The position numbers were made by a program, and so were the translations under genes. The notes beneath the pieces were generated by a model that saw nothing but the letters and a program-made list of their open reading frames with translations, did no database searches and was not told where the DNA came from. Positions 36,852 to 42,148 of a DNA stretch of 64,000 nucleotides are shown in pieces. Position 1 is the stretch's first letter. Every line of letters starts with the position of its first letter. Source of the DNA: a virus; the IMG/VR virus record IMGVR_UViG_3300045988_135203, positions 113,699-177,698 of that record. One strand, given 5' to 3'.

Positions 36852-37418
36852 CTATATAGCTTTTTGTTCATTAAATTTAATTTTCATATCTTCAATAATT
36901 GTATCTAAAGAAACTGGAAAACAATTATGTGCATCAACTGCTACATTATATAGATATGAAATATTGTTATAAAATTTATCTTTAGAATGTGTATGACCTG
37001 AAAGCCCGCAAGTAACTTGATGAAGAGATTCAATTTCTCCATTGCTTGTTACTGTTGGATAATGGCTTAAATAAAAATAATATTTTTTATATTTAAGCAT
37101 TGTAGCATATCCTTCATCAATAATACCGATTTCAGAATAAAGACGACATCGAGCTGGAGTATCATGATTCCCATGAATAAAATGTTTATTTCCATTTAAT
37201 TGCCGCAGACATTCAAGTCCACGTTCATTATCGCATAACATCAAATCACCAAGAATATATAACTCATCTTCTGGTTTTACGATTGAATTAAAATTTTTAA
37301 TAATTGCTTCATTATGCTCTTCAATGGAAGTAAAACCTCTTGGTTCATAAATAAAAGATTTTGAATGACAAAAATGTAAATCACTGGTCAGGTAAATCAA
37401 CTGTAATACCTCCTTCAT
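36852..37418 (-). CDS. calcineurin-like metallophosphoesterase
   Basis: 188 aa; motifs TSDLHFCH, GDL, GNHD. Confidence 0.7.
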   Translation of the reverse strand: MKEVLQLIYLTSDLHFCHSKSFIYEPRGFTSIEEHNEAIIKNFNSIVKPEDELYILGDLMLCDNERGLECLRQLNGNKHFIHGNHDTPARCRLYSEIGIIDEGYATMLKYKKYYFYLSHYPTVTSNGEIESLHQVTCGLSGHTHSKDKFYNNISYLYNVAVDAHNCFPVSLDTIIEDMKIKFNEQKAI

Positions 37419-37908
37419 TTACTTTAGCGATTGCAGAATAAGTATATTTTTCAGAAAAAGTTGGTTTTTCAAACTGTTCATTCATTCTACGAATAACTCC
37501 TCTAGGAACATAAGCGAGTTCATCGTTTTTTCTTAATTCATTTCTACTTAAACAAGTTTCAAGAGGAAGCTCAAAGCTAAAAGGAATAATTTTAACATCT
37601 TTAAGATTTAAACTATCAAGTAATTTATTTCTTGATTTCTGATTAAGTTGAGTAGCATCCGCAATAACAAAATCAATTTTTTCATCAAGATATTTCTGAA
37701 TAGTATCAATATATTCTTTCCAAACTTCTTTTTCCTTATCAAAATATTGAATATTTTTATTTTCACGAAGTTTAGCAAAACGAATAGCATCTCTTGAAAC
37801 TATCTCAAAAGTATTCCTTCCAATTCCATCTACAATTTCTTTTATTGAACGAAAAGTAGTAGATTTTCCAGAACCAGGTATTCCACAAGCAACATATAAA
37901 GTTGTCAT
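37381..37908 (-). CDS. P-loop kinase, polynucleotide 5'-kinase-like
   Basis: 175 aa; Walker A GIPGSGKST (cf. T4 Pnk GCPGSGKST); overlaps the downstream phosphoesterase gene. Confidence 0.5.
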   Translation of the reverse strand: MTTLYVACGIPGSGKSTTFRSIKEIVDGIGRNTFEIVSRDAIRFAKLRENKNIQYFDKEKEVWKEYIDTIQKYLDEKIDFVIADATQLNQKSRNKLLDSLNLKDVKIIPFSFELPLETCLSRNELRKNDELAYVPRGVIRRMNEQFEKPTFSEKYTYSAIAKVNEGGITVDLPDQ

Positions 37909-37909
37909 A

Positions 37910-38179
37910 TTAAATCAACTCTCCCTTTAAATATTCTAAACTTTCTTCTAACTCTTCTTTAAAAACTCCATCTTCAAAATCCTGTTTAAATTGAAATACA
38001 TCTTCTTCATTTCTACATTCTACATGATTTACCTCAATACGACAATGTGGACAATACATTTTTTTTCTGTGAAATCTTGCCTTCTGTCCGCCCTTCTTTC
38101 TTGGCAAGTCATAACTTTTATTACCGCATTTCATACAATAAAAGCTATTAAATACAATATTATTATTTCTTCTTCCCAT
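37910..38179 (-). CDS. zinc-ribbon protein
   Basis: 89 aa; CMKCG..CPHC. Confidence 0.4.
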   Translation of the reverse strand: MGRRNNNIVFNSFYCMKCGNKSYDLPRKKGGQKARFHRKKMYCPHCRIEVNHVECRNEEDVFQFKQDFEDGVFKEELEESLEYLKGELI

Positions 38180-38247
38180 TTTCTTTTCTTTTCCTTATCT
38201 TTAATTGATAAATATATTATATAATATTTTTAATAATTTATCAATTA

Positions 38248-39802: not shown

Positions 39803-40389
39803 ATATCCTGAAAAATAAATTCGCCATTATGTTTTTTCATATATTCTCTATATTTATCTCTATTATATCCAATTTTAGGGTCAGAGAAAGCTGCGGCATA
39901 TGCTCTACGTTCACAAGTTCCGCAAACACAAACACCTACAGTTCCAATGCTCGTAGGGGTAAAATGGTAATCAAAACCGCCACCAATAGCTCCATGGTAG
40001 CCACGAGGATTTTTATGTTCTTTTTCATCATGCTCTTTAGACCAATTATGAATAGCTTCTTTTTCTTCTTCAGTAATTGGAAAGCCTCTATACATATCTT
40101 TTCTCATGGCTTCCCTATCAGTTTGTGCTGCTTCAACTTGTTTTTTCATTGCGATTAATTCATCATCTTTATAATTTTCTGCTTTAAGCTGGGTATTTTC
40201 TGTTTTTAATCTCTGAATTTCATTATCTTTACTTTTGGATAATTCTTTAATGTCCATTAAATAATCTTCAATGGTTTTATCAGATACAAAAATTCCACTA
40301 TGCTTAAATAATTTTTTTGTTCTTTCATCACCTGGCATATTCATTTTCTCCTTTTTTATTATAAATAAATAATATAATAAAAAGAGCAA
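39799..40389 (-). CDS. hypothetical protein
   Basis: 196-aa ORF. Confidence 0.45.
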   Translation of the reverse strand: MLFLLYYLFIIKKEKMNMPGDERTKKLFKHSGIFVSDKTIEDYLMDIKELSKSKDNEIQRLKTENTQLKAENYKDDELIAMKKQVEAAQTDREAMRKDMYRGFPITEEEKEAIHNWSKEHDEKEHKNPRGYHGAIGGGFDYHFTPTSIGTVGVCVCGTCERRAYAAAFSDPKIGYNRDKYREYMKKHNGEFIFQDI

Positions 40390-40397
40390 TAAATCAA

Positions 40398-40730
40398 TTA
40401 TTGCTCTTTATAATTTTTTACTAAGATTTTATAGATTTCATTACAACGTATAAAATCTTCAGAATTTCCACCATTGTCAGGATGAGTGCTTTTTAAAGCA
40501 ATTTTCATAAACTTTAATGTATCCTTTGGTAATACTTTACCTTTCTTTAAGTCTGTCTGTGGCATTGTGTTTTGAAACTTTAATCTTGAATTTAAAACTT
40601 CAAGAGCATATATATGACTTTTTAAAGTTCTGTTTTCTATTTTTAAAGTTTCATTTTCTCCTAAGCAACTCATAAGAAGACTTATATTTACCACAAGGAT
40701 AAATAAAAGCAAAGTGATAACAATTTTCAT
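40398..40730 (-). CDS. membrane-anchored J-domain (DnaJ-like) protein
   Basis: 110 aa; N-terminal TM helix; C-terminal ..KSTHPDNGGNSEDFIRCNEIYKIL (HPD motif). Confidence 0.55.
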   Translation of the reverse strand: MKIVITLLLFILVVNISLLMSCLGENETLKIENRTLKSHIYALEVLNSRLKFQNTMPQTDLKKGKVLPKDTLKFMKIALKSTHPDNGGNSEDFIRCNEIYKILVKNYKEQ

Positions 40731-40765
40731 TTTATCTCCTTTTAAGTAAGGAGAGTTATCTCTCC

Positions 40766-42148
40766 TTACATCTCACTTAGCAAATCTTCAGATACATTAT
40801 CAGTCTCTCCAGAAGCTTCAGCTTGAGCCACAGCAATTCCAGATAAACATTTAAAATCATAATTTTTGTGCTTATATGCCGCAAATCCTGGACGATTCAG
40901 AATTCTACACACAACACCTTCTCGCACATGGGTTTTACCAATCGGGTCTGGACCGTCATAGTATCTTTCTGCAATTTCTTTAATGTACTCTCCTGGATTT
41001 ACTTCCTCTGGAATAAAGTCTCTCCACAGAAGCGGAACACATTTAACACCCATCTGCTCACAACGATAACGCATAAAATCTGGAGTGTATTCTACTACAT
41101 CACCATCTTCATTTGTAGTTGTCATACGATAAACGTATAAATCAGATTTTTTGTTATCTGGGTCACAGCCATAGGAGAATACAGTTTCTTCACCATACTG
41201 TTTAATAAACTCTTTGTTATTTAACTTTTTATTGCTAGCTTTTGGCATGATTGGAGTTCCATCATCGGTAAAACCAACAATTTCATAATAAACAGTTTCA
41301 TCTTTATGAAGTTTTCCTTCAAAGACTTTCTCATGTTTTTCCCTGAACTCATTAGAACCATAAAAGCCACCATCAAAAGAGTCTAATACAGTTCTGCGGG
41401 TTCCAGATACAAGACCCCAGTCATACTTAGGTCTGCTATGCTTATCGAAATAAACAATCATAGCTTTTTGTAACTTATTGAGTTTTCTATTTCGGTCTTT
41501 GATTTCACAGAAAACCGCAAGTACATTTGTTGGAACAATATTTACCAATCTTGGTAAATATCCAGTTCTACCAGAAGTACCGTGCATTTTAAGAGTAATC
41601 TCCACAAGGTCGCCATTCTTAAAAGCTCCCATATTATAAGCAAGCTGTTCTGTATCAGCATGTTCAACAAAAAGTGGAGCGATTGGCACTTTCTTTTTGC
41701 GGGTTTTGTTTACCTTATTATCCACAGAATGATGCTTGCGGATAGGAATATACTTTTTACAAATTTCATGCCCATTCAAAGTAGTAACAGTATCACCGAT
41801 ATTGAGTTCATCAAGATTGATACCTGTATAAGCTACGCATTTGAGAGGAAGGAATAAGCCATCAGATTTTTCACCTCTTAACCGCACAGCAGTAACATTT
41901 CTTTTCTTCGGGTCCATATATCCAGTATCTGGAGTACCATCTGGTTTCTTTCTTAATAGATGATTTTCAAGGCAGAACTCCTCAGATAACTGAAGGTCTA
42001 CTGGAAAGTAGATACCAATTTCACCTTTTACGATATCTAAAGAAATACAAGTATCATTACCAAAAAAAGTTGCAATATTTAACCGGTCAGCATTCGGATG
42101 TTTTCTTAATTCATTTACTTTTACTACATAGCCACAATGCTCAGACAT
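40766..42148 (-). CDS. ATP-dependent RNA ligase (Rnl2/Rnl5-like) with N-terminal OB-like domain
   Basis: 460 aa; nucleotidyltransferase motif I KMHGTS (cf. Rnl2 KIHGTN); motif IV EGVVCR; motif V KHKNYDF. Confidence 0.5.
   Translation of the reverse strand: MSEHCGYVVKVNELRKHPNADRLNIATFFGNDTCISLDIVKGEIGIYFPVDLQLSEEFCLENHLLRKKPDGTPDTGYMDPKKRNVTAVRLRGEKSDGLFLPLKCVAYTGINLDELNIGDTVTTLNGHEICKKYIPIRKHHSVDNKVNKTRKKKVPIAPLFVEHADTEQLAYNMGAFKNGDLVEITLKMHGTSGRTGYLPRLVNIVPTNVLAVFCEIKDRNRKLNKLQKAMIVYFDKHSRPKYDWGLVSGTRRTVLDSFDGGFYGSNEFREKHEKVFEGKLHKDETVYYEIVGFTDDGTPIMPKASNKKLNNKEFIKQYGEETVFSYGCDPDNKKSDLYVYRMTTTNEDGDVVEYTPDFMRYRCEQMGVKCVPLLWRDFIPEEVNPGEYIKEIAERYYDGPDPIGKTHVREGVVCRILNRPGFAAYKHKNYDFKCLSGIAVAQAEASGETDNVSEDLLSEM

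Follow-up and report, generated by a model that had tools for sequence, protein, structure and literature searches.

A probable heal-and-seal RNA repair gene set made of separate polypeptides in an abundant uncultivated phage

Introduction

Do the kinase, phosphoesterase and ligase genes that lie within about 5 kb of each other in the genome of an uncultivated phage form an RNA repair system, and is tRNA its substrate? The genes in question occupy positions 36,852 to 42,148 of a 64,000-nucleotide stretch of DNA, hereafter the window (positions 113,699 to 177,698 of the IMG/VR virus record IMGVR_UViG_3300045988_135203). An earlier note made from the sequence of this stretch had proposed a polynucleotide kinase (PNK)-like enzyme, an overlapping phosphoesterase and an Rnl2-like RNA ligase, which together would defend the translation apparatus against tRNA-targeting immunity. 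We report here that the gene set is probably a phage heal-and-seal RNA repair system built from separate polypeptides, as judged from its sequence. That it serves tRNA counter-defence specifically is a narrower proposal, for which the balance is close to even, or slightly below. The features on which the argument rests are the following:

36852-37400, minus strand: MPE1, an aq_1665-type metallophosphoesterase (MPE) of 182 amino acids (aa), matching Metallophos and phrog_547
37381-37908, minus strand: standalone PNK-like P-loop kinase, 175 aa (AAA_33, 1.7e-18; phrog_505 'polynucleotide kinase', 2.3e-18)
37910-38179, minus strand: Zn-ribbon protein (CxxC...CxxC), 89 aa (phrog_1257, 1.5e-11)
38248-38928, minus strand: MPE2, a metallophosphoesterase of the lambda-phosphatase/PPP type, 226 aa from GTG (phrog_246, 1.6e-34)
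40766-42148, minus strand: RNA ligase, predicted to be of a long-form Rnl5 type, 460 aa (phrog_968 'RNA ligase', 4.8e-64)
42167-42985, minus strand: DEDD (RNase T/DnaQ-like) 3'-5' exonuclease, 272 aa (RNase_T, 5.9e-14)
46383-47162, minus strand: Pol-beta-type nucleotidyltransferase, 259 aa (phrog_388, 1.1e-16)
54048-63796, minus strand: array of 16 tRNA genes (ARAGORN and Rfam RF00005)

Results

The ligase resembles the Rnl5 family

The 460-aa protein had been singled out for an N-terminal OB-like domain and for the motifs KMHGTS, EGVVCR and KHKN, all of which are present. The phrog_968 model covers almost the entire protein, and NCBIfam TIGR02306 (RNA_lig_DRB0094) matches residues 10-197 with an E-value of 2.2e-10; DRB0094 is the Deinococcus ligase that founded the Rnl5 family. 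As the scores stay under the curated cut-offs (40 vs 151 bits for TIGR02306, 21.2 vs 27 for PF09414 and 18.3 vs 27 for PF21189), the protein is better regarded as a divergent long-form relative than as an equivalog. The ligase family comprises 2,188 representatives at 50% clustering. Alignment of 59 homologs, 31-60% identical to the query, showed that K187, G190, S192, R269, E289, G292, Y326, Y340, E410, G411, K426 and K428 are invariant. These residues include motifs I (K187-M-H-G-T-S), III, IV (E410-G411) and V (K426-H-K428) of the covalent nucleotidyltransferases, and their invariance over such divergent sequences argues that the motifs are not there by chance. K187, G190, E289, E410-G411 and K426/K428 were also invariant in a set of 56 homologs.

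Searches of the PDB with single sequences were uninformative (E 0.3-0.6 for the ligase and 0.007-0.08 for the kinase) and family profiles were used instead. The ligase profile matched the Naegleria ligase NgrRnl (2.4e-10) over NgrRnl residues 8-179, an alignment that covers the N-domain from its beginning and extends up to and including motif I. In the profile alignment, motifs I and IV stand opposite NgrRnl K170 and E312, and K132 of the N-domain stands opposite NgrRnl K121. The AlphaFold 2 (AF2) model of the ligase has a mean predicted local distance difference test (pLDDT) score of 82.9, the N-domain forming a beta-barrel with a pLDDT of ~90. The top 13 Foldseek matches to this model were all NgrRnl (E 3.5e-17 to 3.9e-15, with the whole target aligned), followed by T4 Rnl2 (4.4e-7) and archaeal Rnl3 (~1e-5); the CthPnkp ligase domain (3ty5) was matched only at 0.039. 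Together with the invariant motifs, the NgrRnl match at 1e-17 points to the lysine-adenylate nucleotidyltransferase fold on which the earlier note depended. Comparison of the family with canonical phage Rnl5 proteins, which are 340-420 aa long and score above the Pfam thresholds for PHA02142 and RNA_ligase, gave 99.8% probability and an E-value of 1.9e-27 in hhalign.

The domain layout agrees with this assignment. An OB domain at about residues 1-135, with an HPNADRL motif, precedes the nucleotidyltransferase domain, and the ~32 residues past motif V comprise one helix (430-446) and a disordered tail, with no C-terminal domain in the AF2 model. An N-terminal domain ahead of the nucleotidyltransferase domain is the published Rnl5 signature, and the presence of this domain, coupled with the lack of a C-terminal appendage, places the protein in the Rnl5 type by those criteria (PMC4408790). 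The label 'Rnl2-like' has to be abandoned on grounds of architecture, profile and fold: T4 Rnl2 aligns to the core domain only and ten orders of magnitude worse, it reached E-values of just 0.08-0.4 in phmmer and profile searches, and Rnl2 architecture (a nucleotidyltransferase domain followed by a C-terminal domain, with no N-terminal OB domain) is the reverse of that seen here. The window encodes its own NAD-dependent DNA ligase, which argues that the 460-aa protein is not the replicative ligase. Taken together, the profiles and the model identify it as a lysine-nucleotidyltransferase RNA ligase, a divergent long-form member of the Rnl5 type whose activity is predicted.

The N-domain was also matched below threshold by the Pfam OB-fold PHA02142 (5e-4) and by tRNA_bind (PF01588, 0.004), and partially, in Foldseek, by the tRNA-binding OB domains of PheRS-beta, MetRS-C, Arc1p, p43 and YtpR. 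This likeness to tRNA-binding modules is suggestive only.

Some homologs of the ligase are interrupted by an intein directly after motif I (KxHGTS). The intein carries Hint/Intein_splicing domains, to which the long versions (P0121, P0127 and P0133, 790-813 aa) add a LAGLIDADG homing endonuclease; P0141 and P0166 are 589-599 aa long. The insertion site corresponds to about residues 185-200 of the window ligase, which is intein-free.

The kinase is a standalone member of the polynucleotide-kinase clade

The minus-strand kinase does carry the GIPGSGKST P-loop for which it had been picked out (Walker A, G9-x-x-G12-x-G14-K15-S), and Pfam assigns it to the AAA_33/KTI12 group. In 45 homologs, G9, G12, G14, K15, S38-R39-D40-x-x-R43, D84-A85-T86, R93, N123 and R126 are invariant. 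The active site of T4 Pnk comprises K15, D35, R38 and R126, to which K15, D40, R43 and R126 of the window kinase correspond. By its sequence the active site thus has the polynucleotide-kinase pattern, with D40 as the proposed general base.

The kinase profile aligned end to end with the kinase domains of CthPnkp (6.9e-17), Capnocytophaga Pnkp1 (1.5e-15), archaeal PSTK (seryl-tRNA(Sec) kinase, 5.3e-15), T4 Pnk (1.4e-14) and mammalian PNKP (3e-11). The alternative that the enzyme is a nucleoside or deoxynucleoside monophosphate (NMP or dNMP) kinase was rejected: polynucleotide and tRNA kinases were matched at 1e-17 to 1e-11 and adenylate kinase only at 0.009, and the window encodes a guanylate kinase separately. 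The AF2 model (pLDDT 94.6) had its best Foldseek matches to PNKP, PSTK, T4 Pnk, the Mucorales tRNA-splicing kinases, CthPnkp and Pnkp1. By profile and predicted fold, the protein is a standalone member of the polynucleotide-kinase clade and a predicted 5'-OH kinase.

Two phosphoesterases accompany the kinase

The overlap previously described between the kinase gene and a phosphoesterase gene is real, although it probably measures 20 nt and not 38 nt. MPE1 has two alternative starts, TTG 37400 (182 aa, 20-nt overlap) and ATG 37418 (188 aa, 38-nt overlap). A perfect AAGGAGG lies 8 nt upstream of TTG 37400, within the 3' end of the kinase gene, and metagenome gene calls also place the start there; TTG 37400 is the most likely start. 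An overlap with a Shine-Dalgarno sequence inside the upstream gene is an arrangement typical of translational coupling, which is how we would read the kinase-MPE1 pair. MPE1 scores 28.5 bits against Pfam Metallophos (cut-off 21.5) and 3.8e-42 against phrog_547. Its binuclear metal motifs G57-D58, G83-N84-H85, H119 and G141-H142-x-H144 are invariant, and D13-x-H15 is at least 90% conserved. The only close solved relative found with the MPE1 profile is 1xm7, the uncharacterised Aquifex protein aq_1665 (1.2e-18). Neither 4j6o nor 1g5b was matched in the PDB at E <= 0.001, so that similarity to the Pnkp phosphatase was not detected and MPE1 was rejected as a Pnkp-type phosphatase. We propose it, from its sequence and position, as a candidate 3'-end-healing phosphoesterase.

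The Pnkp-like enzyme is instead MPE2, which had been overlooked and lies one gene upstream of the kinase, past the Zn-ribbon gene. Its conserved Met4 (223 aa) is a more likely start than the GTG (226 aa). MPE2 carries the PPP signatures GDxxDRG and GNHE, and its invariant residues are D11-x-H13, G36-D37-x-x-D40-R41-G42, G63-N64-H65-E66, H136 and G172-H173. Its profile matched lambda phosphatase 1g5b at 2e-23 (residues 3-177) and the CthPnkp phosphatase 4j6o at 7.6e-8. In addition to phrog_246, it matched positions 177-307 of phrog_8238, a family of kinase-phosphatase-ligase fusions (1e-7), and positions 224-323 of TIGR04075 (bacter_Pnkp, 0.002). In both models, the kinase and MPE2 align to the stretches where a kinase and a phosphatase would be expected, and MPE1 is matched by neither. 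These matches indicate that the pair resembling Pnkp is the kinase and MPE2, while the physically coupled pair is the kinase and MPE1. The 'bacterial Pnkp arrangement' previously claimed therefore holds insofar as a Pnkp/lambda-type phosphatase is present, but not for the overlapping gene, whose product is aq_1665-like. Work by Keppetipola and Shuman in 2007 reportedly found 2',3'-cyclic phosphodiesterase activity for both lambda phosphatase and CthPnkp. MPE2 is a candidate for this activity and is, by sequence, the component most like the Pnkp phosphatase domain.

Ligase and kinase probably lie in different transcription units

In the order of transcription the genes encode the DEDD exonuclease, the ligase, two open reading frames (ORFs) of 110 and 196 aa, a YqeY/GatB-like protein, two tiny ORFs, MPE2, the Zn-ribbon protein, the kinase, MPE1, a flotillin-like protein and a PIN-PhoH protein. 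No family was detected for the 110-aa and 196-aa ORFs. The spacing between kinase and ligase, put at about 3 kb by the earlier note, is 2.86 kb and holds seven ORFs, among them the Zn-ribbon and MPE2 genes, which that note had not mentioned. Nine terminator-like hairpins were found in the region where 2.5 +/- 1.5 were expected, including those on the minus strand at 43288-43250, 40409-40381 and 39190-39155, and near-consensus promoter-like sites occur at 39154-39126 and 38244-38216, between ligase and kinase. The region is probably split into several transcription units by these hairpins and sites, and ligase and kinase are therefore probably not carried on one transcript.

The kinase cassette and RNA ligases recur together in other phages

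As one strand carries all the genes of the 64-kb window, co-orientation is uninformative, and ligase and kinase are 2.9 kb apart; we therefore compared other genomes. Two sets were used: 80 IMG/VR loci selected by the ligase (identity 55-97%) and 80 loci selected by the kinase (identity 24-47%), the counts being raw, without background rate or phylogenetic correction.

Of the ligase-selected loci, 54/80 (phmmer) or 70/80 (jackhmmer) have a kinase homolog no more than 10 kb from the ligase, and the loci that have none are mostly truncated contigs. The Zn-ribbon, kinase and MPE1 genes stay one contiguous block across this set; the Zn-ribbon gene directly precedes the kinase gene in 36 of these loci and in 18 of the 80 kinase-selected ones. 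The most conserved neighbour of the ligase is the Pol-beta nucleotidyltransferase (66/80), which is homologous (1e-33) to a cluster present in 13/80 kinase-selected loci. The DEDD exonuclease is directly upstream of the ligase in 23/80; in the window it ends 18 nt upstream of the ligase start.

Conversely, 43/80 kinase-selected loci have an RNA ligase (28/49 among loci of at least 18 kb). These ligases are of three kinds: long-form Rnl5 (20), canonical Rnl5 (17) and T4 Rnl1-type (PF09511; 10), some loci having a canonical Rnl5-type ligase in addition to the Rnl1-type one. The Rnl1-type ligase holds the ligase position beside the kinase-phosphoesterase cassette at L095 and L097, and was also found at L124, L127, L132, L133, L136, L137, L139, L154, L168 and L177. 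Thg1-like genes (PF04446, 9.9e-30), of the tRNA-His guanylyltransferase family, were found no farther than 10 kb from the kinase in 10/80 kinase-selected loci (L106, L107, L115-L117, L120, L125, L136, L139 and L154); none was seen in the 64-kb window.

The phosphoesterase also follows a pattern. MPE1 is directly downstream of 24/59 standalone kinases, mostly with a gap of -59 to +25 nt, and of 0/17 kinases fused to an HD domain (Fisher p = 8e-4). That MPE1 never directly follows the fusions suggests that its activity is the one that the HD domain provides. In the Bacillus phages vB_BcoS-136 and PBC2, the gene right after a ligase of the same family encodes the kinase-HD fusion, and a PNK lies near a same-family ligase in Microbacterium phage Pioneer3 (0.2 kb) and Mycobacterium phage Acquire49 (3.4 kb). 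These recurrent neighbourhoods support a functional link between the kinase cassette and RNA ligases.

Several observations weigh against reading the genes as one repair system. The ligase scores below its curated cut-offs, as described above. Co-orientation carries no weight, the ligase is separated from the kinase by unrelated small genes and by terminator- and promoter-like sites, and in relatives the distance between the two varies from 1.7 to 10 kb. phrog_547, the family of MPE1, occurs in 1,820 phage records, in most of which no kinase partner is obvious; the closest relative of MPE2 is a protein phosphatase, the lambda Ser/Thr phosphatase; the kinase fold is also like that of the sugar kinase 6-phosphofructo-2-kinase, a structural outlier of lower sequence identity; and the loci do not all count as independent, many of them belonging to phages that are related to one another. 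Most of these points would favour an alternative in which the genes are neighbours by descent only, with MPE2 serving host takeover as a lambda-type protein phosphatase, MPE1 and the kinase acting on nucleotides or signalling molecules and the ligase acting alone. However, the kinase profile is far nearer to polynucleotide and tRNA kinases than to NMP kinases and keeps the DxxR motif of PNK, three unrelated ligase families swap beside the cassette, the HD fusion and an adjacent MPE1 exclude each other, and distant lineages (Bacillus phages and actinophages) likewise pair ligase with PNK. We regard separate action of these genes as distinctly unlikely.

A pathway for joint healing and sealing

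Beyond the family assignments, intact catalytic motifs, predicted folds, gene overlap and conserved neighbourhoods described above, we can only infer that the three activities meet on one RNA, that this RNA is a tRNA, which phosphoesterase heals the 3' ends, and that the purpose is to counter tRNA-cleaving host immunity. A ribonuclease of the host or of a competitor would leave 2',3'-cyclic phosphate (or 3'-phosphate) and 5'-OH ends. The standalone kinase would phosphorylate the 5'-OH; D40 would serve as the general base, and K15, R43 and R126 would bind phosphates. A metallophosphoesterase would strip the 3' or 2',3'-cyclic phosphate; the first candidate is MPE1, by virtue of its apparent translational coupling to the kinase, and MPE2 might be a second or cooperating cyclic phosphodiesterase. 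The ligase, adenylylated on K187, would then seal the 3'-OH/5'-PO4 break with the assistance of the N-terminal OB domain; a duplex or a stem, as in a nicked tRNA, might keep the broken ends in place.

Neighbouring genes and the tRNA array

The wider neighbourhood holds further genes that may bear on RNA work:

39338-39802, minus strand: YqeY/GatB-like protein, weak (phrog_1460, 2.8e-5)
43282-44082, minus strand: microbial PARG/macro-type protein, TIGR02452 (196 bits, cut-off 50)
44075-44536, minus strand: YqeY/GatB-C-terminal-like protein, clear (PF09424, 3.1e-17)
45611-46369, minus strand: MPE3, a third metallophosphoesterase, 252 aa (phrog_1649)
47597-48019, minus strand: small HD-domain protein, 140 aa
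48121-50586, minus strand: 821-aa protein with major-vault-protein shoulder and Vault_3 repeat domains
52417-53985, minus strand: DUF2828+DUF7788 protein (phrog_850 'RNA-binding protein', 6.5e-131)

The large tRNA array described previously was borne out: all 16 ARAGORN genes are upheld by Rfam RF00005 (44.8-72.5 bits). The array shares the strand of the ligase gene, from which it is separated by 12 kb on the upstream side, and is taken as context only for the RNA-repair genes. One of its members (56885-56958, minus strand) is called by ARAGORN as tRNA-Tyr with the unusual anticodon ATA, and Rfam agrees that it is a tRNA (57.6 bits). The DUF2828+DUF7788 gene adjoins the first tRNA gene, and DUF2828 proteins occur in 10/80 kinase-selected loci. 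An Rfam scan of the whole window returned only the 16 tRNAs, with no Y-RNA-like gene beside the DUF2828 protein. The vault-like gene is 2 kb from the DUF2828+DUF7788 gene.

The YqeY/GatB-C-terminal domain type binds tRNA in GatB. The Zn-ribbon protein, which has weak ribosomal L33-like matches as well, may be an RNA-binding accessory. The DEDD exonuclease may trim ends, its membership of the module being uncertain. The Pol-beta nucleotidyltransferase carries a GSQNY...SDIDTK signature and may be an RlaP-like 3'-nucleotide adder, with module membership suggested by co-occurrence. Its likeness to RlaP lies in the G-S...D-x-D motif and the neighbourhood, and the identity was not confirmed: PF10127 (RlaP) gave no match to the 259-aa protein even at E up to 5, Polbeta PF18765 gave only 0.021, and a PDB search returned none. 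The TIGR02452 protein may remove ADP-ribose; its gene overlaps the end of the YqeY gene at 44075-44536 and is kept in the closest relatives only (3/80 loci). The genes for MPE3 and the HD protein flank that of the nucleotidyltransferase, and four phosphoesterase-type genes lie within 11 kb. As a whole, this neighbourhood (exonuclease, YqeY/GatB-like, PARG-like, MPE3, HD, nucleotidyltransferase, DUF2828 and tRNAs) is consistent with RNA work.

The number of phosphoesterases, three metallophosphoesterases and an HD protein, goes beyond what simple healing and sealing needs, and raises the alternative that they mainly reverse other tRNA marks, such as 3'-CCA pyrophosphorylation by toxic alarmone synthetases or the 2'- and 3'-phosphates left by other toxins, the kinase and ligase being secondary or separate. 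Pyrophosphorylation of tRNA 3' ends is a known antiphage mechanism (PMC11559606), and the macro/PARG-like protein nearby suggests the reversal of other modifications. No specific sequence sign of pyrophosphatase activity on tRNA was seen, however, and the tight coupling of kinase and MPE1 and the association with ligases fit end healing better, which makes this alternative very improbable.

The main rival is the repair of nicks in DNA or RNA-DNA. Here the genes would serve end repair in phage replication or DNA damage: the kinase and phosphoesterase would mend 5'-OH and 3'-phosphate ends of DNA (or RNA-DNA), and the Rnl5-type ligase would seal 3'-RNA nicks (ribonucleotide patches or primers) and not tRNA. 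The Rnl5 enzymes characterised so far act on nicked duplexes and require ribonucleotides at the 3'-OH side of the nick; their physiological role has been called uncharted, and Deinococcus becomes more sensitive to ionising radiation when DraRnl is lost (PMC5397189, PMC4408790). tRNA is consequently not an established Rnl5 substrate, which also speaks against the tRNA repair proposed above. T4 Pnk and mammalian PNKP, both among the best matches of the kinase, act on DNA. The module adjoins replication genes (gyrase A/B, NAD-dependent DNA ligase, RNase H, DnaB and a DnaE-type polymerase), and the DEDD exonuclease abuts the ligase. On the other hand, relatives pair the kinase cassette with T4 Rnl1-type ligases and with Thg1-like tRNA 5'-end repair enzymes; the ligase N-domain has the weak tRNA_bind similarity and partial fold matches described above; and two YqeY/GatB-like proteins, a DUF2828 'RNA-binding protein' and 16 tRNA genes are nearby. 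We therefore consider nick repair unlikely, and RNA healing and sealing remains the preferred reading.

The phage and its host

The window has a G+C content of ~31%, and its minus strand holds every credible gene. Many metagenome contigs of 172-184 kb carry identical or near-identical copies of the RNA-repair locus, which indicates an abundant uncultivated phage of ~180 kb. Megablast of positions 36000-44100 against 50,697 phage records gave no match, that is, no cultured relative at the nucleotide level. The lysins bear SH3 and ELLD domains and the DnaE-type polymerase is like SPbeta YorL (only 37% identity), which indicates a Gram-positive host and suggests Clostridia or Bacilli; the sequence points to Gram-positive gut-type bacteria. 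Other features located in the window are:

837-1343, minus strand: activase of the anaerobic ribonucleotide reductase
1343-3619, minus strand: anaerobic ribonucleotide reductase NrdD
3672-4259: guanylate kinase, separate from the PNK-like kinase
10884-12677, minus strand: DHH/DHHA1 phosphoesterase (RecJ/NrnA-like)
20788-21777, 27496-28206 and 28389-29942, all minus strand: GIY-YIG homing-endonuclease-like genes and the gyrase B-like ORF
22455-24413: NAD-dependent DNA ligase, separate from the RNA ligase

The presence of NrdD with its activase and of the DHH/DHHA1 phosphoesterase is consistent with an anaerobic host. The GIY-YIG genes are scattered between the replication genes. The gyrase B-like ORF, in which GyrB and Toprim are the only domains, seems to be truncated or split, and in relatives LAGLIDADG or GIY-YIG genes interrupt the gyrase genes.

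Discussion

That phages repair RNA with a kinase, a phosphatase and a ligase is knowledge that goes back to T4, and the window is chiefly one more well-supported case, found in an abundant uncultivated phage. Its neighbourhoods, with the PNK cassette, Rnl1 swapping, Thg1-like genes, Pol-beta nucleotidyltransferase and tRNA arrays, make a role of Rnl5 in tRNA repair testable. One can go further and imagine that the long-form Rnl5 is a dedicated sealer of tRNA breaks, its OB domain being a tRNA-binding module of the Trbp111/EMAPII type, that it is functionally interchangeable with Rnl1-type ligases, and that it works with a two-gene healing unit not characterised before, made up of the standalone PNK and the aq_1665-type metallophosphoesterase, with the Zn-ribbon protein as a partner. 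We hold this idea to be speculative and, on balance, doubtful; if true, it would give Rnl5 its first physiological role and the widespread phrog_547 phosphoesterases a function. The occurrence of MPE1 beside standalone kinases only, and never beside kinase-HD fusions, nominates this very common uncharacterised family for 3'-end healing.

Comparison with known systems

With the Rnl5 enzymes DraRnl and NgrRnl, the window ligase shares, as known here from its sequence, an N-terminal OB-type domain, a nucleotidyltransferase domain and the lack of a C-terminal domain, and it keeps the motif I lysine, the EG of motif IV, the KxK of motif V and the lysine of the N-domain. It differs in length (460 vs ~340 aa), in its extra segments within the nucleotidyltransferase domain (~195-250), its disordered linker at 137-152 and its short C-terminal helix, and in having Q168 and H189 where NgrRnl has R149 and D172, according to our reading of the hidden Markov model alignment. 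DraRnl homologs in phages have been noted before (PMC4408790).

The bacterial Pnkp/Hen1 system offers the best relatives of the kinase by profile search, namely the kinase domains of CthPnkp and Capnocytophaga Pnkp1 (4xrp), while MPE2 resembles the lambda-like Pnkp phosphatase domain, and the kinase and MPE2 align, in this order, to the PHROG family of kinase-phosphatase-ligase fusions. Unlike Pnkp, however, the window has three separate genes that are arranged differently, a Zn-ribbon gene setting the phosphatase apart from the kinase, and its ligase is of the Rnl5 type and not an Rnl4 domain. TIGR04075, which describes the single polypeptide, gave 27 bits for the kinase and 16 bits for MPE2 against a cut-off of 750. 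No Hen1 methyltransferase was found among the scanned neighbours of the module.

The T4 system, in which Pnkp and Rnl1 counter PrrC, is alike in comprising a phage-encoded 5' kinase, a 3' phosphoesterase and an ATP-dependent ligase, along with tRNA genes. The window kinase has the active-site pattern of T4 Pnk (K15, D-x-x-R, R126), and an Rnl1-type ligase fills the ligase position in relatives of the phage. In contrast to T4, the kinase is unfused, the phosphatase is a binuclear metallophosphoesterase and not the DxDxT acyl-phosphatase type, the ligase is Rnl5-type rather than Rnl1, and the genes are spread over ~5 kb.

The nearest parallels come from the Bacillus phages vB_BcoS-136 (gp190), PBC2 (gp158) and Thrax (gp100/gp101), which have a ligase of the same family (45-48% identity) and a homologous AAA_33 kinase immediately next to it. 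In their case the kinase itself carries the phosphoesterase, as a fused HD domain, whereas the window has a standalone kinase and an overlapping metallophosphoesterase gene; across 76 loci, the kinase-HD fusion and an adjacent MPE1 are mutually exclusive. In these closest cultured phages the ligase is already annotated beside a polynucleotide kinase, with T4 tRNA repair cited. The Thrax genes, including this ligase family, have been read as T4-like RNA repair (PMC9703825), and a survey of jumbo phages described ATP-dependent RNA ligases accompanied by PNKs and phosphoesterases, of which few were calcineurin-like or HD, and by tRNAs (PMC7824862). By analogy with these published views of related phages, tRNA repair and counter-defence would be a plausible role for the genes described here.

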